Assembly: GCA_903864915.1 (NCBI GenBank) | Contig: CAIPHS010000011.1 | Span: 14,634 to 78,633, forward strand | Direction: 5' to 3' | Source: an uncultured Candidatus Woesearchaeota archaeon | GTDB taxonomy: Archaea > Nanobdellota > Nanobdellia > UBA10117 | DNA length: 64,000 nucleotides | Part shown: positions 6,659 to 50,936 of the stretch, in pieces | Numbering within the stretch: the first letter of the stretch is position 1 | Layout: the number at the start of each line of letters is the position of its first letter | Program-made: the position numbers and the translations under genes | The notes under the pieces: generated by a model | Told to the model about the DNA's origin: nothing | The model's database searches: none | The model's input: the letters and a program-made list of their open reading frames with translations, nothing else

Positions 6659-7273
6659 TTAAGTGCTTAACGTATAAGAAAGTTCTGTTATCTTTAGTTG
6701 GGTGCCAGGTTCTACGTATGCTACAATATCCCAGCTGTTTCCGGTCCAGCTTACAGCGTCCAGGAAACATGTTTCCAAACACGTTCGACCGAAAGAGCCG
6801 CCACCGGTATTAAATCCAAGGTCACCAGGCCACGCAAGTTTATTACCTGTGCTTAATATCATCTCATCATCAAACTCTGCGTTTGCGGGATTTGCGGCTA
6901 CTGCAAGTCCTGTTATGAGGTTCGGCCTGTTTGGCTTGCCTACGTTGCCATAAACCATAAGTTTGTCACCCGCGCTGTTGCGTAAATAAACAGCGACATC
7001 ACCATCGCCGATTATCTCGCCAGATATTGCTAGATAATTCAGCGACGCTGATTGCCCGCTTTTTGTGTGCATCTGGATTAGTTTGCTTTCATCCAAAGTC
7101 ATATTGATCTGCTGTCTTTGTGCATCTGAAGAAACAAAACCAGTAATTGAAGGCTTTAACAAAACAAGGGGTAAAAACAAAAGGAGAACAATTACTGCGA
7201 CCAGTTCCAATTTTCGCAATCTCGTCGACCAAATGTTTGCCTTTACCATTTTATTAGAGGATATAAGCCTCAC
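6659..7273 (-). CDS. secreted/anchored protein, unknown function
   Basis: An N-terminal hydrophobic helix is followed by KPSITGFVSS, the same motif seen in the two giant proteins. GTG start lies 1 nt after the upstream stop; alternative ATG at 7249. Confidence 0.55.
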   Translation of the reverse strand: MRLISSNKMVKANIWSTRLRKLELVAVIVLLLFLPLVLLKPSITGFVSSDAQRQQINMTLDESKLIQMHTKSGQSASLNYLAISGEIIGDGDVAVYLRNSAGDKLMVYGNVGKPNRPNLITGLAVAANPANAEFDDEMILSTGNKLAWPGDLGFNTGGGSFGRTCLETCFLDAVSWTGNSWDIVAYVEPGTQLKITELSYTLST

Positions 7274-7274
7274 T

Positions 7275-7793
7275 TTAAAGTTTTTCTATGCTCTTTCTGG
7301 CTCGGATGCTATGAAAGACCCAAGTTAAAATCGCCATGCTAAGCCCTGCCACAAACATCGGCACAGCTAGCATCAGGCCATTAGTTGAAAATTGAGTTGC
7401 CAGCATGCTGATTGTGCTGCCGGTTAGTGGCATCTGAATGAAAGTGAAAATGAGCAGCAGACCAACCATAGTCAATAGAGCAACATGCAGCGCGGTAAGC
7501 GCATATTTAACGCGCTCTGATAACTTCTCTTGGTTCAGCGCCAGGATGGCAAATAAAAGTACCAACAAAAGCATTAGGGGGGTCGCATATATTAGATTTG
7601 GAGCAGTAGCTGGCTTGATGCTAATAACATCAGCACCCACACATTGTGCCGCATTAGAAACGACCTCTAAAAAATTACCAGTGGCAGTAAAATATGGGGA
7701 AGGGCAGTGCAAAGTCAGAAACACAGTCGCGATGATTAACAATAGCAACAAAATTACGACATTTGTTTTTCCGTCTAGTTTCTTTTTAGACAT
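7275..7793 (-). CDS. polytopic membrane protein, unknown function
   Basis: 172 aa with 4-5 hydrophobic helices. Confidence 0.5.
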   Translation of the reverse strand: MSKKKLDGKTNVVILLLLLIIATVFLTLHCPSPYFTATGNFLEVVSNAAQCVGADVISIKPATAPNLIYATPLMLLLVLLFAILALNQEKLSERVKYALTALHVALLTMVGLLLIFTFIQMPLTGSTISMLATQFSTNGLMLAVPMFVAGLSMAILTWVFHSIRARKSIEKL

Positions 7794-7880
7794 AGTCCGT
7801 AAACCGACACTAAATGACCGTCCCCTAATATAAGCATTATACTCTAAAGGTATATAAAAATATTGTGACTAAAAGGAACT

Positions 7881-8540
7881 TTATTGTGCAACCAGATTGA
7901 TTTCCTTTCCAGCTATCCTTACATTATCGACTGTGCCTGATATCTTCAACTCGTTTTTGCTAACCACAAAAATTCCAACAAAATTTTGCAAGTCTAGCTT
8001 CTCGTTATCAAGCGAGACTGTCGCTTTGCCGGAAGCCATGCTGACGCTGCCGGAAGAAGTGTAAGAAAAGGTGTCTAAGCTCAAATCCAAGCTTATCGCA
8101 TTATAATTAAGCTGGCCGTTTATATTCAAACTTTTCACATTTGGTAAGATTGCGATTTCATTAATTGCAAGCTTTTGTGTTTTACCAGAGAGATTTGCAG
8201 TCTCTGTTATATTAATAGAACCGTCGAAGGGTTCTGCAGTAAGTTCACCTGACGTCACATTTGACAAGTCCAGACTTTCAGAATTCACGGAAACACGATC
8301 TGTCGGATTCTCAAACGCTATCGATATTGAGTTTGCTCCTTTCAAGTCTAAACCTTTAAACTCCAGCACAGCATCTATTGGTATTCTTGAGCTCGAATTT
8401 CCGCCTGAGCCAGCAAATGCGCTGTCTATTTTCTCTATCAAGCCAGGGGCGAACTTTGTAATCCCGATACCCGTGCCTACTGAAGCTGCTAGAAAGAGCA
8501 AAACGAGGATAAGTAGGGTAGCCTTTCGTTTTAAAGTCAT
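7881..8540 (-). CDS. secreted beta-rich protein, unknown function
   Basis: N-terminal signal/anchor, then a repetitive beta-strand-like sequence rich in S/N/L. Confidence 0.5.
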   Translation of the reverse strand: MTLKRKATLLILVLLFLAASVGTGIGITKFAPGLIEKIDSAFAGSGGNSSSRIPIDAVLEFKGLDLKGANSISIAFENPTDRVSVNSESLDLSNVTSGELTAEPFDGSINITETANLSGKTQKLAINEIAILPNVKSLNINGQLNYNAISLDLSLDTFSYTSSGSVSMASGKATVSLDNEKLDLQNFVGIFVVSKNELKISGTVDNVRIAGKEINLVAQ

Positions 8541-8626
8541 AGTCTTACTGCTAAAAGATAACTTCTATAAAAGACTTAGTAGAGTTCAGCAAACATTTAA
8601 TACTACTGCATTCATCTACGTAATCT

Positions 8627-9436
8627 ATGGTCCTTGAATGGCTGGTTGATGTTCACAAGATGGAAGGTAAGCCATGGAAGATGGTTTTCTTCGGCTTTAT
8701 TTACAGCGTGATTGCTGCAGGCCTGGCTTTGCTGATGCTGCCAAAGTTTGCAGGCCCAGTCATGCTCGCGTTCACAATGGTAGCCTTTGTTCCTCTAATG
8801 ATAAGCCTGATGAAGGAAGAGGAATTGAGGGATGAAGGCCGTAAAAATAAATTTGCACACTGGCTTGTCAAGGAACACTGGCCAGCTATGAAGTTTTTCA
8901 TTTGTATGTTTGCGGGCATGCTTCTCGCATATACAATTTTATTCATACTTTTACCAAAACAGTATGCAACAAACCTGTTCTCGATGCAACTTGACATGAT
9001 CACGAGCAGGAGTGTACAGCTCGGGGCGTTAATCGGTGATGGAAAATTACTGGCAATTCTGGCGAATAATTTCAAGGTCCTCGCCACAGGCTTGTTTCTG
9101 GCATTCATCTACGGGACTGGCGCAATTTTCATACTGAGCTGGAACGCTGCAATCCTCGGCACATTAATTGGCGACATAATTAAAACATCAATACAGACCG
9201 GCGCGGTGCCTTTGTCAATAGGAAAATTCCTGCTGCACGGCATACCTGAAATCACTGCGTATTTCATAGCAGGCCTTGCAGGCGGCATTATCTCCATAGC
9301 TGCGGCAAAACACAAGCTCGGCGATCCACAATTCAAGGAAGTTGTGAAAGATTCCCTAGAATTAATACTGCTTTCAGTAGTTCTGTTGATAGTCTCTGCG
9401 TTGCTGGAAGTTTATGTATCGCCGCTGATAGGTTAG
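8627..9436 (+). CDS. SpoIIM/DUF95-family membrane protein
   Basis: Polytopic. The motif LLHGIPEITAYFIAGLAGG is characteristic of the family. Confidence 0.65.
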   Translation: MVLEWLVDVHKMEGKPWKMVFFGFIYSVIAAGLALLMLPKFAGPVMLAFTMVAFVPLMISLMKEEELRDEGRKNKFAHWLVKEHWPAMKFFICMFAGMLLAYTILFILLPKQYATNLFSMQLDMITSRSVQLGALIGDGKLLAILANNFKVLATGLFLAFIYGTGAIFILSWNAAILGTLIGDIIKTSIQTGAVPLSIGKFLLHGIPEITAYFIAGLAGGIISIAAAKHKLGDPQFKEVVKDSLELILLSVVLLIVSALLEVYVSPLIG

Positions 9437-9563
9437 TAATCTTTATACGCTTTAGTGTTGTATAATGACACTATGGAAGAGGCACACTATTGGATAATAT
9501 TCTTTGTTATAATTATAATAATAATAGCACTTGTCGCAATTTTTTCGAGCAATCCAGATTTAA

Positions 9564-12500
9564 TCAGCGGGTCTTTCTTTTAGCTTCTTTTTCTTCTGCC
9601 TCTCTTTTTTTCTTCCGCCATATCGCCCAAATCAAATACAAAACTACTAAAAATGTCAATAATGTTTGTACATAGAACATATAACTTGGGGCAAATGCTA
9701 CTGAGGCTAACGGCTTTTCAAGGATTCTGACAGTTAAGTAGGCGCTGCCTGCTTCTATCCCATTTAACGTAATTCGGACATCTGCAACACCATCATCAGT
9801 CACATCAACATCGCCGCTCTCGTTGACGCCTAATTTAAGGCGAGATACTTTTGATTCTATCTGCAAATCTACAAAGTTGTCTGCAATCTGCAGAGGTGTG
9901 ATTGTGTGGTTAACTCCATCGTAAGTAAATACATGACTCTCGTTGACGCTGCTGTTATAATCATATACTGATGTGAAATTGAAATCACCTATGTAATATG
10001 TGCCAGTATATCCCGCCTGCCCTGGTAAAGTTTCATTTGCAACAGCTGAGACATTTGTGGTTGGCTTGCGGTGCTTTAGTATGCTTTCAAAACCTGATGG
10101 TGTCAGTGTTGTTGAAGTTGTTGTAAAGTTGTAAGGCCCTGATGTTACACAATTATTATACTGGTCGCACGATGTAACATTGAAGAAATATGTTGTGTTG
10201 GCGGATAAGCTAGCAAGTGCAAGGCTATGTGACAGGACAAAAGATGCACTGGTTATGTTGCTGCCCAACGCCAAGGTCGTGTCATAATCGATTGTGGAAT
10301 TCGCGAATACATTGGTGTCCCAAAGGATTTGTGTGCTGTTATCTGTAATAGATTGCGCGATTACATTACTTATTACTGGCGGAGTGATGTTTATCCACCA
10401 TGTCTCGTAAGCAGCAGTATAGTTCTGATTTCCTAAGAATTCTGCAGTAATATTATGCACTCCAAGCGCGTCGAACAACGTCACGTTTTGAGATGGTGAG
10501 GCTCCCGAATAGATTTGAGTTCCGTTGTCATACACTTGCATATCGCCTGTTCCGCTTACTAGAACTGCAGATATATTCACATAAGTATTATTCGACGTTG
10601 TAAAGTTAGCTCTTGATCCGTTCAGGTAGAGATAGATAACTCCGGTCACTGGATTAATTACATAAGAAAAGCCCGTACTTGCCGAAGTATAGTTTTGGCT
10701 TGCGGAAGTATTACAAACATAATTGTAAGTGTTTGCAGCCAGTGTTGTGTACATATTATTTTCGCTAGAGGTTACATCTACTCCGTCCCGGTACAGCTCA
10801 GTGGCAGCTTCAGGATTTGTGCAACTGCAAGATGCGTTTATTGCAGTTCCATAAGTCTGAGGTGATGTTGGATTAAATGCGAGATTGCAGCTTGATGTAT
10901 TCTGATTAACCGTCAGGAACCACGTTTCAAAGCTGCCAGTATAATTCTCATCACCTAAATTGACTGCAGTGTAATTGTAAGTGCCCGCAGCTAAAGTTGC
11001 GATGTCCTGGTTACTTACAGAACTTCCTTCTCTGTAAAGAGTTACAGACCCTACATCTGTCACAGCAGTCGCATTTGTCTGGCTCGGATATGTGACCGTT
11101 TCATTTGCTCCCATTCCATCCAGATAAAGCTGAGTGCTTGTTGATGTTTTGTTTATTGTCAGCGTGTTTGAAGCTGACTCTGAAGTATAATTTTGCGAAG
11201 CGGTATTATTGCAGACATAATCGTAAGTGCCTGCGGCATGAGTTATTGTGTAAGGAATACCCACAAACGTTCCATTTACATATAATTGTGGTGTTACCTC
11301 TGCATTATTCGCTGAACAATTGACTGTTGTTTCCGTCGGATATGTGTTTGTCCAGCTTGGAGATGCTGTCAGACTCAGAACTGTTGTTACCGGATCAAGC
11401 TCGTATATTGAACTGTTACTTGCTGTTGACCAATTGCCTGTTTCTGTTACATTACAGACATAGCTGTAGTTTCCCGCTGCGAGAGATGCGAACACATTAT
11501 TCTCAGTCGCTGTAACATCTGCATCGTCTCTGTACAATTTGGCTGACGATTCAGGATTTGTGCAACTGCAGCTCGCATTTACTGATGTCGGATATGTCTG
11601 TGGTGACGTTGGATTGAAATTCAGATAACAGTTGGATACATTTTTGAGTGTTACAGCTAACGTATTCGAAGTTGAAGCCTCTGTGTAATTCTGGGTTGCT
11701 GAGTTGTTACAGATATAATTATAGTTGCCTGGTGAAAGTGTTTGAACATCTGGATTGCTTGCTGATGTGCCGTTTCTGTAAAATGAAGGTGTTACTTGTG
11801 GTGTGTTTGTACCACAACTGACATTTGTCTGTGTTCCGTTAAATACAACCCATCCCGGACTTGCAGAGAGCGTAAGAACTGATATTGCCCTATCTACTAT
11901 TAGCAATCTTGCGGGGCTTGAGCCAGCTGTATAATTAACTCCGCCAGTCGTGTTGTAAACATAAGTGTAGTTACCTGCTGCCAGGGTCTGTACATCTGAA
12001 GCCGGGTCTCCCGAATTTGCCAGGATGCCATTTCCGTACAAGTTGAACGTCAAGTCTTGATTATTAACGAGGTCCGACCATCCGGTTGCGTTCGATTGAG
12101 TGCCATAAGTTATTGCGGTATCACTTTCTATTCCGTTTAATGCCAGTCCGAGGTTGCCAGAAGGATTTGCCCGAGTTATTGTATAGTTTGAACTGTTGCT
12201 TGCTGATGTATAGTTTTGTGAAGCTGAAATGTTGCAAGTGTAATTGTGAGCTTGCGCAGCCAATACAGTGTTTATGTTATTCTCAGTCACTGTAACATTT
12301 GCACCGTCTCTGTACAATGTAGCTGATGCTTCTGGGTTTGTACAACTACAAGATGCGTTTATTGCGGTGCCATAAGTCTGTGGTGATGTTGGATTAAAGC
12401 TAAGGGAGCAAGTAGATGTGACTTGACTGACAGTCACATAATATATTATTCCAGTCCCGTTTGCAGTATAATTCGTATTACCGGTGGTGTTCGCTTTGTA

Positions 12501-43796: not shown

Positions 43797-45488
43797 ATGG
43801 CTGAGGACATTAATGCTTTGATTGAAAAACATGCGCTTGCCAATGCATTTTCTCATGGCGGCAAAGCGCAACCTGGTTCAATCATAGGAAAATTGATTGC
43901 TGATAATCCCAAATACCGGGAGCAGATGAAAGAACTTGCCCCGAAGATTGCAAAACTCGTTTTTGAAGTTAACAAACTTACAATAAAGCAGCAGGAAGAA
44001 AAGTTGCTTAAGATTTTTCCGGAATTCTTTGAGAAGAAAGTGCACGAGGAAAAGAAAGATCTGCCCGAACTACCTGGTGCTAAGATGGGAAAAGTTGTTA
44101 CGCGCTTTGCACCATATCCGTCTGGTGCTTTGCACATAGGCAACCTCAAACCCGCACTTATCAGTTACATGTATGCGAAAAAATATGATGGCAAATTTAT
44201 CATTCGAATAGAAGATACAAATCCCGAAAAGATGAAACCAGAATATATTAAGTATATCGGGGAAGACCTTGATGCTCTCGGGCTGAAGCCAGACATTCCA
44301 ATATACAAAGTATCAGATCATTTCGACTATTATATAGACTTAGCAAAAAAATTAGTTAAAGAAGCTAAAGCCTATGTGTGTACTTGCTCTACAGTTGGCC
44401 AAAAAAAAGGTCGATTGGCGTCAATTAAAACTGAATGCAAATGCAGAAAACTTCCAACTAAAGAGCACGAAGCTAGATTTGCAGATATGATCTCTGGCAA
44501 ATACAAAGAACATGCTGCAATTTTGAGATTAAAAACAAACATTAATGACCCGAACCCTGCGTTAAGAGACCCTACGCTTTACAAGATAAGCGATATACCT
44601 CACGCAGTAACTGGTAAAAAATATCATGTTTATCCGATGTATAACTTTCAATGCGCAATCGAGGATCATGATTACGACATAACTCATGTTTTCAGAGCAG
44701 TAGAACATACTGCAAACACAGAAATACAAAAGAAAATATTTGATGCTTTTGGCTGGAAAAATTTTCCAAATGTCGTGAACTTTGGCTTTTTGTATCTAAT
44801 TGGAACAAACATTCACAAAAGATATATCCGTGAAGGTTTCGATAAAGGTATTTACAAAAGCTGGGATGATATTGTTCTTGGCGAACAATGTGGTATTGTC
44901 CGTGCTTTGTTGCGACGTGGAATACAAAGACATACTTTCGAACATTTAGTAATTGAATTAGGAGTAAGCCCAAATGTTGCAAGGATAAGCTGGGATATGA
45001 TTTATTCTATAAACCGGAAGCTTATCGATCCTATTGCACACAGGTATTCATTTGTTGCAGAACCTGTCGAGCTTAATATAAAAAATGCACCAAACGTAAA
45101 AGAAATCGAAGTCAAGCTGCATCCGGACAGCGACAAGGAATTCAAGAAAATCAAAGTCAACAATTCGGTTTACGTCTGGGGAAAGGATTTCAACAGATTC
45201 AAAGGCCAGGAAGTCAGATTAATGCACCTTTACAACATCAAGCTAAACCCAAAAGCAGAATTCACGAGCAAGGAAAACAAGCAAATTCCAAGAATCCAGT
45301 GGGTACCTACTGATTTTGCAGTCAAAACAGAAGTTTTGATGCCAACTGGTGATGTGGAAAAAGGATTTGCCGAGAAGAATGTTGAAAATCTCAAAGTCGG
45401 CGATATAATCCAGTTTGAAAGGTTTGGCTTTGTAAAATTAGAGAAGAAAGGCAAAGACAAATTTATTTTCTGTTACACGCACGGCTGA
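43797..45488 (+). CDS. gltX: glutamyl-tRNA synthetase (archaeal type)
   Basis: RFAPYPSGALHIGN (HIGH region) and the archaeal N-terminal ALANAFSHGGKAQPGSIIGK segment. ATG at 43797 is preferred over the 43704 ORF start. Confidence 0.9.
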   Translation: MAEDINALIEKHALANAFSHGGKAQPGSIIGKLIADNPKYREQMKELAPKIAKLVFEVNKLTIKQQEEKLLKIFPEFFEKKVHEEKKDLPELPGAKMGKVVTRFAPYPSGALHIGNLKPALISYMYAKKYDGKFIIRIEDTNPEKMKPEYIKYIGEDLDALGLKPDIPIYKVSDHFDYYIDLAKKLVKEAKAYVCTCSTVGQKKGRLASIKTECKCRKLPTKEHEARFADMISGKYKEHAAILRLKTNINDPNPALRDPTLYKISDIPHAVTGKKYHVYPMYNFQCAIEDHDYDITHVFRAVEHTANTEIQKKIFDAFGWKNFPNVVNFGFLYLIGTNIHKRYIREGFDKGIYKSWDDIVLGEQCGIVRALLRRGIQRHTFEHLVIELGVSPNVARISWDMIYSINRKLIDPIAHRYSFVAEPVELNIKNAPNVKEIEVKLHPDSDKEFKKIKVNNSVYVWGKDFNRFKGQEVRLMHLYNIKLNPKAEFTSKENKQIPRIQWVPTDFAVKTEVLMPTGDVEKGFAEKNVENLKVGDIIQFERFGFVKLEKKGKDKFIFCYTHG

Positions 45489-46942: not shown

Positions 46943-47131
46943 ATGCCAATATGTGCTTATTGCAAAAAGGACTTTGACAGGACAAGCGGAAAGGCAGTTA
47001 TCATGAATAGTGGCAAGATTCTCTATTTCTGCTCAGGCAAGTGCGATGCGTACATGCTTGAATTGGAAAGAAACCCAAAAAGGCTCAAGTGGACCAAGCC
47101 AGAAAAGCTAAAGCCAAAAGCCAAGACTTAA
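46943..47131 (+). CDS. rpl24e: ribosomal protein L24e
   Basis: CAYCKKDFDRTSGKAVIMNSGKILYFCSGKC...NPKRLKWT. Confidence 0.85.
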   Translation: MPICAYCKKDFDRTSGKAVIMNSGKILYFCSGKCDAYMLELERNPKRLKWTKPEKLKPKAKT

Positions 47132-47302
47132 TCAGTTGTTATAATTTCTGAATTTGTTAAAACCTAAGCCCCAATTTCGGATATCGTTTATCTGATAGAT
47201 TGCCTCATCCTTATCAAAATCCGGGCCCCGCCATTCAAGATCTGCGAGGGCTTTCTGCTCCATAAGAATCTGCGATTCCAAAGTGGAAACTTGTTTTTCC
47301 AT
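47132..47302 (-). CDS. possible 56-aa protein, last gene of the orphan operon (below the ORF-track cutoff)
   Basis: Hand translation gives MEKQVSTLESQILMEQKALADLEWRGPDFDKDEAIYQINDIRNWGLGFNKFRNYNN. GAGAGGGG lies 2 nt upstream of the ATG, which is 8 nt after the upstream stop. Confidence 0.4.
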   Translation of the reverse strand: MEKQVSTLESQILMEQKALADLEWRGPDFDKDEAIYQINDIRNWGLGFNKFRNYNN

Positions 47303-47309
47303 ACCCCTC

Positions 47310-47819
47310 TCACCGGCGTAATTTCTTCTTTATTTTATGCATTTTTACAGCGATGCCGGCTTCAGTTTTTTCCAACGCTTCTTTTTCTTTCTTGCTCATC
47401 TCATAAGGAGGTGTGCTTACTGGCGTTCCAGGCAATTCCCAGAACCAGTCACCTGCAACATTATTCGGGTCGTAAGTAAACTCTAACCGCTTGTCTTCTT
47501 TTGGCAGAGGCTTGTCTGTCAGCTCTGCAAGTAAAGCAGACAATTCCAAATGATATCCCACTGATGGCTTTTCCTTTCCAGACTTGCAGTCTTCGCAATA
47601 CTTCATATGCCACTGGTAGATATCTTCCAATTGCTCCCTTAGGCAAGGCTCAGATTTGTCCAGCTCATCATCAGGGTCAAAATGTATTATGAGCTCAAGG
47701 TCGCCTAGCGTGCTTTTCAGCTTGGCACATTGCTTGGTAATCTCAAGAATCTGAAAGGATGAGTAATGCGAATCCAAGGTGATATTTGCTCCCAAATATT
47801 TATCCTGTTTATTCGGCAT
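47310..47819 (-). CDS. hypothetical cytoplasmic protein (orphan operon gene 3)
   Basis: The ATG at 47819 is preceded by GGAGGAA; the ORF track extends to 47843. Contains a CEDC pair but no recognised family. Confidence 0.5.
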   Translation of the reverse strand: MPNKQDKYLGANITLDSHYSSFQILEITKQCAKLKSTLGDLELIIHFDPDDELDKSEPCLREQLEDIYQWHMKYCEDCKSGKEKPSVGYHLELSALLAELTDKPLPKEDKRLEFTYDPNNVAGDWFWELPGTPVSTPPYEMSKKEKEALEKTEAGIAVKMHKIKKKLRR

Positions 47820-48312
47820 TGGTTCCTCCAAGCAAGTCATCAAGGCTTTTATCTGCAGTCATGTCTTTTATCGGTGCTGTTATAATATAACCTAAACCGT
47901 AATATGTATAATTCTCCTCTAAATAACCGCGTTGGTCGCGCGGATAAAATCCGCTCATCTGCATACCTTCTGCAAGAACATCAACATATCTTCCACGGAA
48001 TATTCCCATGTCAGATCTTCTGGCATGATACTCGTTAGACTCATCAGACACATAAAAAACACCGCTCTTAATCAGCCAGATGCCAACATCCTCTGGTTTT
48101 GGAAATTCTGGCTTCTCACCCCTTTCATTTCTGGCGCTAAACACTGCTTCTTTAAACAAAAACATACTTCTATCTTCTTCTGAAAGTGATTCTAGGTGTT
48201 TTTTGTATTTTTCAGAATCTATCAGATATTGCTGAACTCTTTTGTGCACTTCTTCAGGCGTTAAACCTAAATCTCCCCTTCTTTTGCATGTCTTACAAGC
48301 GTCTTCTTCCAT
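47809..48312 (-). CDS. hypothetical cytoplasmic protein (orphan operon gene 2)
   Basis: The ATG at 48312 lies 1 nt after the upstream TGA; the ORF track extends to TTG at 48324. N-terminal CKTC pair. Confidence 0.5.
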   Translation of the reverse strand: MEEDACKTCKRRGDLGLTPEEVHKRVQQYLIDSEKYKKHLESLSEEDRSMFLFKEAVFSARNERGEKPEFPKPEDVGIWLIKSGVFYVSDESNEYHARRSDMGIFRGRYVDVLAEGMQMSGFYPRDQRGYLEENYTYYGLGYIITAPIKDMTADKSLDDLLGGTNAE

Positions 48313-48313
48313 A

Positions 48314-48880
48314 TCAATCAACAAGTTTCAATTGCTTAGCTTCTGCCATTAACGATTCTCTTTTACCGGCCTCTTTCCGAATCTTCTTCTCTTCTGCACT
48401 TATTCTCTCCCCTGCTTGTTCCTGCTTCTCTTGTTTCTTTAACCAAGACTTATACTTAGATATGGCTTTTCGCTTTCCTAATTTAATCATGCGCCCCATC
48501 GCAGCTTCCCAAGGACCAGATATGTAGACCGCAAGCTCCTCAATATTATAGCTGTTTTCATTGTAACTGGCCTGGAAAACATGCTGATAGCCACCCCCGC
48601 CATCGTAATTAATATCCATCTTGTCTGTATTGTGGGAGTAATGTGTTCCGCCAGTCTCCCAGGTTATGCCAAACCCTAGAAAGTCAATTATTTCCCGCTT
48701 GACGTATATGTTAGTGGAGCCTTCCTTGCGGTCAACCTCTGTGTCCAAATCAGTATTATCTAATCCAAGCATCACATTTTCAAGAAAATTAATTGTCTTG
48801 CCAATGAATTTTTCTCTTGACTTGACTATCGTTTCAAGCTCTTTTACGGGCAATGACTCTAGGTCTTTTGACTCAGTCAT
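48314..48880 (-). CDS. hypothetical cytoplasmic protein with K/E-rich tail (orphan operon gene 1)
   Basis: 188-aa ORF with a GGGGYQH segment and a charged helical C-terminus. Confidence 0.5.
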   Translation of the reverse strand: MTESKDLESLPVKELETIVKSREKFIGKTINFLENVMLGLDNTDLDTEVDRKEGSTNIYVKREIIDFLGFGITWETGGTHYSHNTDKMDINYDGGGGYQHVFQASYNENSYNIEELAVYISGPWEAAMGRMIKLGKRKAISKYKSWLKKQEKQEQAGERISAEEKKIRKEAGKRESLMAEAKQLKLVD

Positions 48881-49001
48881 ATACTACTAAACGCTGACAA
48901 CCTATAAAAGAATTATTCTGCTGGACTAAACGGGATAAGAGCTGAGGCATAGATTTTTATATATCTCTTTTGGATTAAGGGTTAGTGGAGGACATATTAA
49001 C

Positions 49002-49394: not shown

Positions 49395-50936
49395 ATGAGT
49401 AATGTAATATTGACAAATATTATGAAAGTGCGGGACTACAGCTGTGCCCCTGTGAGCCTGCCCATACTGGCCAGCTATGTCGAGCATAACACCGAAGCGG
49501 ATGCTGAGATTTTTGACATGACGCTGGAGATGGCTAAAACCCAGTCATACAAAAAGTCGCTCAGGAATCTTGAAAAAAGGCTTGACAATTGCGAAGTCCT
49601 CGGCGTCCATACCATAACCCCAAATTATTACCTGGTTGTAAATATGCTGCGGGGCCTGAAGAAGATTCACGGAAAGCTCCCGACTGTTGTGCTGGGAGGC
49701 CCGCATGCAACAGCGGTACCAGTCATAACTCTTGAACAGACCAAGGGTCTTGTTGATGTCATAGTCATAGGCCCTGGCGAGAGGCAGCTTGCCGAGATTG
49801 TAATGGGAACACCTCTGGAAGAAATCCCAAACATAGCTTACCGGGAAGGCAGGAAAATAAAGCTCACAAAAAGAAAGCTCATGGAGCCTTTCGATGAAAA
49901 AATCGAAAGAAAATTCCTTGAATTCTGCATGACTCCAAGCTTCAGCAAGCGCATGGGCAAGTTAAAGGAACTTTCAGACATCAGCAGGTACAGCTGCCCA
50001 AACCAGTGTGATTATTGTTCCTGTGTTAGGGTCAGGGGAGGGACATTCAACAGAGACCCTGATATCGTGGCTGAGGAAATTGCAGAAATCAACGACAGGA
50101 AGAAACTGGAAAACATAATCTTTGTCGATGACAACCATTTCCTGGATTTTAATCACGCCGTGGCTCTTGACAAGGCACTAAAAGAGCAGGGCATCGAAGC
50201 CTCAAAAACAAGCTATGCAGACCTCGACACGCTTACAAAACCAAACCTGCAGAGCATAAAGAACATGAATTACGATGCGCTGTTTGTCGGCCGTGATTTT
50301 GTTACAAACAGGCTTGCAAGGATTTACGGCAGAAGGCTGGCAGGCAGAATAAGGGATGTTGAAAGTGAAAAGAAAATATTGGACAGGGCGGCGAGGACAA
50401 TCCCGCTGACAATTAGTTACATCATTCCGGCGCCCCACTACACCATGGAAGAAGTCAAGAAGACTGTGGATGACATGTGCGATTATTGCTGGCAGGGCGT
50501 AAGATACGGAATCTTATCGCCCCTTCCCGGCACAAAAATAAGGGAAAAGCTGCGGAAAGAAAAACTTCTGAACAGCTGGGCAGCCAACTGCGACAAGATG
50601 AACGGAAGGCCGCTGGATTTCACATTCAGATTTTTGAACAAGGACGTTGAGACATGGACGTACAGCAACGCTGTGGAAGAAATAAAACTCGATTATTACG
50701 AAAAAAGCCATGAAGGTACCTGGAAGCTTCTTAATTTTGGCAAAGCCAACCTGCTCATTGCATCAGCAATAACATATTCCAGTGACAAGCTTGATCACTG
50801 CATGAACAGGTTTGCAAAATACTGGAGCGAAGAACAAATTTCTGCCTCGAAAGATTACCTGAAGGTTTCAAAAACATACATGAAAGACAAGGATTTTGTC
50901 AGCTTCTGCAAAAAAACCATAAAAAATTACGCTTAG
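49395..50936 (+). CDS. B12-binding-domain radical SAM protein
   Basis: An N-terminal Rossmann-like B12-binding-type region (VVLGGPHAT) and the radical SAM cluster CPNQCDYCSC. Confidence 0.8.
   Translation: MSNVILTNIMKVRDYSCAPVSLPILASYVEHNTEADAEIFDMTLEMAKTQSYKKSLRNLEKRLDNCEVLGVHTITPNYYLVVNMLRGLKKIHGKLPTVVLGGPHATAVPVITLEQTKGLVDVIVIGPGERQLAEIVMGTPLEEIPNIAYREGRKIKLTKRKLMEPFDEKIERKFLEFCMTPSFSKRMGKLKELSDISRYSCPNQCDYCSCVRVRGGTFNRDPDIVAEEIAEINDRKKLENIIFVDDNHFLDFNHAVALDKALKEQGIEASKTSYADLDTLTKPNLQSIKNMNYDALFVGRDFVTNRLARIYGRRLAGRIRDVESEKKILDRAARTIPLTISYIIPAPHYTMEEVKKTVDDMCDYCWQGVRYGILSPLPGTKIREKLRKEKLLNSWAANCDKMNGRPLDFTFRFLNKDVETWTYSNAVEEIKLDYYEKSHEGTWKLLNFGKANLLIASAITYSSDKLDHCMNRFAKYWSEEQISASKDYLKVSKTYMKDKDFVSFCKKTIKNYA

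Follow-up and report, generated by a model that had tools for sequence, protein, structure and literature searches.

The four small genes packed between a U32_C-like gene and rpl24e in the archaeal genome studied here are probably a composite that occupies a slot of accessory-gene turnover, and not a dedicated four-component system. The DNA analysed (the window) is a stretch of 64,000 nucleotides corresponding to bases 14634-78633 of contig C11, from an assembly of 650 kb in 13 contigs that is 83% complete. The genes were designated A, B, C and D. Outside the population of this species a conserved four-gene unit was not encountered: other loci carried A and D only, a homologue of B only or a homologue of C only. 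The preliminary description of this DNA had compared the four genes to the compact cassettes typical of defence or conflict systems or of lineage-specific complexes, and had made that comparison depend on conservation of the cassette as a unit elsewhere. Since the cassette is not conserved in this way, it is removed from the candidates for a new defence system.

According to the interpretation that we favour, A and D would be the stable core of the slot in this genus and B+C an indel between them. Each gene has a distribution of its own: A patchy and multi-copy throughout the class, B in one other lineage at the same slot, C in one other genome at a different place, and D only together with A. 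The products are acidic, soluble proteins of the cytoplasm that purifying selection maintains. The four proteins might still act jointly in this species, since genes coupled so tightly would also be expected for a functional complex; adjacency is all that speaks for such a joint function.

Gene layout and signals for expression

The cluster is bordered on one side by the plus-strand genes for L7Ae, S28e, a Zn-ribbon protein and L24e, and on the other side by a divergent pair of genes, one for a U32_C-like barrel protein and the other for a B12-binding radical SAM enzyme. The features of the region are as follows (window coordinates).

48314-48880, minus strand: gene A, 188 aa
47809-48312, minus strand: gene B, 167 aa, counted from the ATG start
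47310-47819, minus strand: gene C, 169 aa, counted from the ATG start
47132-47302, minus strand: gene D, 56 aa
47303-48312, minus strand: B+C segment, 1,010 bp, present in the window and absent from the sister species
48881-49001, no strand: divergent intergenic region, nearly identical in the two sister species
47082-47100, minus strand: hairpin followed by TTTTT, candidate terminator, a pattern match only

The open reading frames of four co-oriented, tightly packed minus-strand genes were as originally described. A and B are separated by a single nucleotide (TGA-t-ATG) and B and C overlap by 11 nt, again in agreement with the preliminary description; the gap between C and D (TGA-GAGGGGT-ATG) is 7 nt and not the 8 nt given there. 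The stop of D (47132) abuts the stop of rpl24e (47131) end to end, so that the fourth gene does end where rpl24e ends. All four products are hydrophilic and acidic (pI 4.7-6.0) and none contains a transmembrane segment, which bears out their characterisation as soluble and charged. The two CxxC pairs are also present, CKTC at residues 6-9 of B and CEDC at residues 75-78 of C, and the K/E-rich helical tail ascribed to A was modelled as a single helix (residues 136-183). A comparison of base composition and codon use had been proposed as a check; made against the genome, it set apart one gene only. A, C and D were ordinary in their GC content and codon usage, and the GC3 of B was low (0.32 vs a genome value of 0.44 ± 0.056, i.e. 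2.1 SD under the mean).

Two strong Shine-Dalgarno-like sites had been claimed, one before C and one before D. The 16S rRNA of this genome ends in ...GGATCACCTCCT. C is preceded by GGAGGAA, in which GGAGGA lies 5 nt before the ATG and is a good Shine-Dalgarno match to this terminus. D is preceded by GAGAGGGG, of which GAGG alone pairs with the 16S rRNA end, at a distance of 3 nt from the ATG. The site of C therefore stands, and that of D is not a strong one. Upstream of A, the sequence TTTTATA is found 23-29 nt before the ATG and is kept in the two sister species. Its placement fits the TATA box of a leaderless archaeal first gene and suggests a role as promoter. A second TATA-like box in the divergent intergenic region faces the U32_C-like gene. 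At the other end of the cluster, a hairpin followed by TTTTT is situated within the 3' end of rpl24e, 32 nt past the stop of D, which makes it a candidate terminator for transcription of the minus strand; three hairpin-T sites were found in the scanned region, where 2.3 were expected by chance.

From this arrangement A, B, C and D are probably co-transcribed as one tight cluster. The transcript would start at the TATA-like box about 26 nt upstream of the ATG of A, with A being leaderless. B would be reached through termination and reinitiation over the 1-nt gap, C via the GGAGGA site lying inside the end of B, and D via the weak GAGG site.

It might be objected that such small genes without recognisable relatives are not genes at all, or that the cluster was put together during assembly. 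The order A-B-C-D was called identically in three longer assemblies, and fragments with 99.6-100% identity were present in at least six further assemblies of the same population. Overall the four-gene order was found in at least nine independent assemblies of this population, and it was stable and identical in every one that spans the cluster. The cluster is therefore not an assembly artefact. Compared with the two sister species described below, dN/dS was 0.22-0.27 for A and 0.07-0.14 for D, and neighbouring housekeeping genes gave 0.05-0.19 in the same comparison. A and D are under purifying selection. These values, together with the existence of diverged homologues of B and C and the gene order in independent assemblies, establish that all four open reading frames are real protein-coding genes. 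Variants of the population without B+C were looked for among public contigs and none was found, the contigs being merely fragmented. One public contig (L065) matched the window at 100% identity as far as base 48074, within B, and then continued into an unrelated Gly-rich open reading frame (L065 3283-3740); it is probably a chimeric assembly join.

Contents of the slot in related archaea

Two sister species were available for comparison, one represented by the metagenome contigs L010 and L011 and the other by L014 (GCA_026396475.1). In both of them the slot is flanked as in the window, by the U32_C-like gene and the gene for L24e. The A protein of the window is 87% identical to that of L010/L011 and 81% identical, by alignment, to that of L014. 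Between the window and L010, identity amounts to 95-96% for L7Ae, S28e, PsmA and Rpp14. In both sister species the stop codon of A is followed by one base and then by the ATG of D, without B or C in between. Because D directly follows A in these species, B+C amounts to an indel of 1,010 bp. Against L010, L011 and L014 the left edge of this indel reads TGA-T-ATGGAA|GAAGAC and the right edge GGGGT-ATGGAA|AAACAA. The sequence (T)ATGGAA is thus common to both edges. About four of its bases are informative beyond the obligatory ATG, and since so few are shared the microhomology is merely suggestive. With (T)ATGGAA at both edges, the downstream gene regains its start codon and its Glu codon in either case, insertion or deletion. 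In other words, an insertion and a microhomology-mediated deletion would both leave an intact stop-1nt-ATG-GAA junction behind.

More distant relatives with the same slot were found in a lineage designated Z, which is represented by several independent assemblies (L034-L038). Between Z and the window identity has fallen to 63% for L7Ae, 59% for S28e and 50% for Rpp14. In Z the slot contained a homologue of B alone, divergent from the U32_C-like and radical SAM genes, and A, C and D were absent from it. The stop of this homologue abuts the stop of the L24e gene as TGATTA, which is the same arrangement as that of D and rpl24e in the window. The L24e gene itself, with 61 codons on the minus strand, had not been called in these assemblies (L034 2705-2890, and likewise L035, L037 and L038). 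The presence of B at the same slot in an outgroup implies that B may be old there and that the A-D form may have arisen by deletion. The absence of A, C and D from Z argues against a ready polarisation of the event. An extra codon common to both A-D species at the C-terminus of A indicates that these two may be closest kin.

The 1,010-bp segment could be thought to be a selfish or addiction-type module of two genes, for instance one resembling a toxin-antitoxin pair, which inserted into an A-D operon via the ATGGAA microhomology and captured the translational coupling of A. We consider this unlikely. B and C do resemble type II toxin-antitoxin systems and other two-gene addiction modules in being small, overlapping genes (11 nt) of similar size with an extremely sparse distribution, which close relatives either possess together or lack together. 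The clean edges of the segment, the low GC3 of B and the fact that the 3' end of the segment provides the displaced D with a new Shine-Dalgarno-like site would all be in keeping with an insertion. However, the two genes were never found together elsewhere, the B homologue being alone in Z and the C homologue alone in another genome (G007), and with 167 and 169 aa the proteins are large for modules of this kind. No match to a toxin-antitoxin, defence, transposase or phage model was obtained. There is no second copy of B+C in the genome of the window and no terminal repeats, inverted ones included, were found around the segment. Finally, the finding of a B homologue in this slot in a lineage as remote as Z speaks for B being old there, and the A-D form may have come about by deletion.

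The preliminary description had recognised no family for any of the four genes, and database searches led to the same result. Searches of Pfam, NCBIfam and PHROGs with all four proteins gave nothing significant, and PDB sequence searches with the profiles of A, B, C and D returned noise only. PADLOC-DB 2.0 likewise yielded nothing significant: the best match was that of A to AbiEi (E 0.012, 13.8 bits), and B, C and D had no match. Neither IMG/VR viral contigs nor GenBank phage records contained relatives of A, B or C, and the cluster showed no domain of a nuclease, ATPase, transposase or toxin. Two candidate assignments found no support in these data. Identification of B+C as a type II toxin-antitoxin system, by homology or by a DNA-binding antitoxin domain, failed in Pfam, NCBIfam and PADLOC. 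A mobile element or prophage remnant was not indicated either, in view of the lack of PHROG, phage or IMG/VR relatives and of terminal repeats, the GC3 of B being the only value that was low.

The idea that the four proteins constitute one species-specific complex or conflict system, serving defence or interaction with a host, must be judged against the same data. The tight coupling of the genes and the stability of their order across assemblies speak for such a system, and conflict genes share with them rapid evolution, a patchy distribution and a position in a hot spot of turnover. Against this, the cluster is not kept as a unit, its parts occurring singly or in other combinations, it encodes no enzymatic or sensor domain, PADLOC found nothing significant in it and viral relatives did not turn up. 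We therefore regard a joint conflict system as quite improbable, and the role in defence suggested in the preliminary description is not supported. Its alternative suggestion, a lineage-specific complex, was correct as far as lineage specificity is concerned and failed with respect to conservation as a unit. A composite in a turnover slot is the reading that we retain.

Relatives and predicted properties of the individual proteins

On the strength of profile similarity, A is a member of an undescribed protein family of the Nanoarchaeia that is patchy and often multi-copy. With a profile built from the first hits, 11 of the 39 genomes of the order and 22 of the 401 genomes sampled from the class proved to contain relatives, at up to three copies per genome. 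Tandem pairs of A-family genes occurred in two genomes (loci L043 1707-2764 and L042 158-1579). The genome of the window itself has a second paralogue on contig C1 (17515-18102). This copy belongs to a syntenic paralogue group in which a gene for an MBL-fold protein is followed by the A-like gene and then by that of a class I aminoacyl-tRNA synthetase. Beyond close kin no conserved neighbour of the family was observed in the 26 loci examined. In an alignment of 15 family members (A4), conservation extends to an N-terminal helix with LExxV...E, to a six-stranded antiparallel sheet that carries DFxGF, IxYxG and YxxGxWE, to a charged linker or helical tail, and to (R/K)AKxLxL at the C-terminus.

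An AlphaFold2 model of A, calculated from an alignment of eight sequences, reached a pLDDT of 80.7 and a pTM of 0.70. It comprises a helix at residues 12-39, six antiparallel strands within residues 46-119, and two further helices at 123-134 and 136-183. Foldseek found no significant neighbour of this model in the PDB (best E 0.31) or in BFVD (best E 0.07), so that structure comparison, too, left A without a recognisable family. The top matches in the PDB were p32/gC1qR/MAM33 proteins (PDB 1p32 and 1yqf). The p32 fold consists of an N-terminal helix, consecutive antiparallel strands and C-terminal helices, in the same order as in the model, and has seven strands, where the model of A has six. 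The similarity is nevertheless not significant (E 0.31, probability 0.11, TM 0.2), and none of the 15 family members, which had no Pfam match of any kind, matched the MAM33 model PF02330. Membership of A in the MAM33/p32 family was rejected for these reasons. The existence of tandem A pairs in G009 and G013 also led us to consider B or C as diverged tandem paralogues of A. With hhalign the probabilities stayed under 0.3%, and the idea was dismissed; A, B and C are mutually unrelated.

By its distribution D is a conserved partner gene of A. It was seen solely alongside A, in three close species. Its sequence is 84-89% identical in the two sister species, in which the stop codon of A and 1 nt precede it, and it was not found elsewhere in the 39 genomes of the order. 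Conceivably, A is a helix-sheet-helix adaptor whose conserved C-terminal peptide serves for docking, and D would be the small protein that partners it.

For B, a search of 1.84 billion representatives with phmmer retrieved one relative, a protein of 162 aa with 45% identity (E 1e-22), which is the homologue that fills the slot alone in Z. The two share long conserved blocks, among them DxCKTCKRxGDL and GIFRGRxxDVL. B was not found in the 400 other sampled genomes of the class (1 of 401 overall), and a pattern scan of JGI metagenomes located its homologue at one locus. An AlphaFold model of B made from two sequences had a pLDDT of 43, too poor for a structure search. Residues 56-104 of B (window 48010-48157) also matched a motif that recurs along a protein of 5,105 aa and that we take to be an NHL-type repeat (phmmer E 2e-7, summed over the repeats). 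As a single short recurring motif set against the 167 aa of B, this match was judged not to be meaningful.

C was present in two of the 401 sampled genomes of the class. Its only homologue is a protein of 132 aa with 50% identity (E 1e-34) in G007, a genome of the same family and another genus; the pattern scan of JGI metagenomes gave no match for C. Three histidines (H18, H46 and H71) and the pair C75-x2-C78 are invariant between the two proteins, and C has in addition a K/E-rich tail. In G007 the gene lies at an unrelated locus (L009 5608-6523, contig G007:C4), with an AsnC-type regulator upstream. There is an 8-nt overlap with the start of a gene for an ATP:corrinoid adenosyltransferase of the CobA/CobO/BtuR type (Pfam E 6e-53). 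A gene for a 730-aa protein is situated 1.6 kb away and is presumably that of a class II ribonucleotide reductase, a reading made from its sequence and not from a family search. In both genomes that carry it, C is thus within 2 kb of B12-related genes.

This neighbourhood is the sole functional lead for C, and a weak one. Carried further, it would make C, and perhaps the whole cluster, an accessory of corrinoid (B12) handling tied to the neighbouring B12-binding radical SAM enzyme. The gene overlap and the putative ribonucleotide reductase in G007, the divergent position of the cluster next to the U32_C-like and radical SAM genes in the window, and the invariant histidines and CxxC pair of C are all compatible with such a role. 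With only two genomes carrying C, however, the association has an n of 2. Moreover, G007 lacks the radical SAM enzyme, CobA is absent from the window genome at its 83% completeness, and the sister species L014 possesses the radical SAM enzyme without C. We consider a corrinoid accessory very unlikely. In keeping with a composite of separate parts, B and C could be independent small proteins, possibly metal-binding ones.

Gene flow around the slot and its significance

The surroundings of the slot bear marks of exchange between lineages. The radical SAM gene next to the cluster (window 49395-50936) is 95.8% identical at the protein level and 85-99% identical at the DNA level to its counterparts in L034/L036, although the ribosomal proteins of the lineages that share this near-identical gene are only 59-63% identical. 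In the adjacent U32_C-like gene and flank the identity between the window and Z is 73-83%, and beyond them it drops to background. Judged by these values, the similarity of the radical SAM genes looks as if a transfer or a gene conversion had recently taken place between lineages of DPANN archaea.

Two further observations concern the genes on the other side of the cluster and the sister species. The GluRS gene of the window (43809-45488) is only 59% identical to that of L010 (10965-12569), though the adjacent L7Ae, S28e and PsmA are 95% identical; the GluRS of L010 is in turn 84% identical to that of the distant lineage (L034 3771-5447). This pattern looks like the replacement of an aminoacyl-tRNA synthetase allele. 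The sister species also hold other, different orphan genes in and next to the slot. L010 has extra genes in or beside its L7Ae-S28e-L24e operon (6743-9777), namely an orphan of 118 aa between D and L24e, a gene for a 393-aa FAD-dependent protein resembling geranylgeranyl reductases, and orphans of 118 and 190 aa. These extra genes show a high gene turnover in the core operon.

The slot resembles the strain-variable genomic islands and hot spots in having alternative contents at one syntenic position between recombining flanks. It differs from them in being very small (0.5-1.8 kb), in lying within the archaeal translation/exosome superoperon region and in having no integrase, tRNA or repeat at its boundary. 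A likeness also exists to the lineage-specific hypothetical protein families of DPANN archaea, of which PMC8204110 and PMC9258230 give surveys. Like the proteins considered here, these are small, soluble, devoid of annotated domains, confined to parts of the DPANN radiation, patchy and often present in several copies per genome; the comparison is one of general traits and not of family numbers. The slot with its alternative contents, on the other hand, is specific to the present locus.

A bolder view can be formulated in which the A family, with its helix, six-strand sheet and long helix, its lack of a structural neighbour and its C-terminal docking peptide, is a new class of adaptors throughout the Nanoarchaeia. 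The slot would then serve for the recombination-driven exchange of fast-evolving partners (B, C, D and others) in conflicts between symbiont and host or with viruses, and A to D would act jointly in this species. This is speculation, and we hold it to be rather doubtful.

What the composite nature of the cluster means for these organisms is more modest. The A family, which is confidently modelled and patchy across the Nanoarchaeia, could enter the catalogues of DPANN-specific proteins. The B+C segment shows in clean form how translational coupling can survive an indel, with the segment present as well as absent. The conserved translation/exosome neighbourhood of these ultra-small archaea is, finally, also a site of gene turnover and of recombination between lineages.
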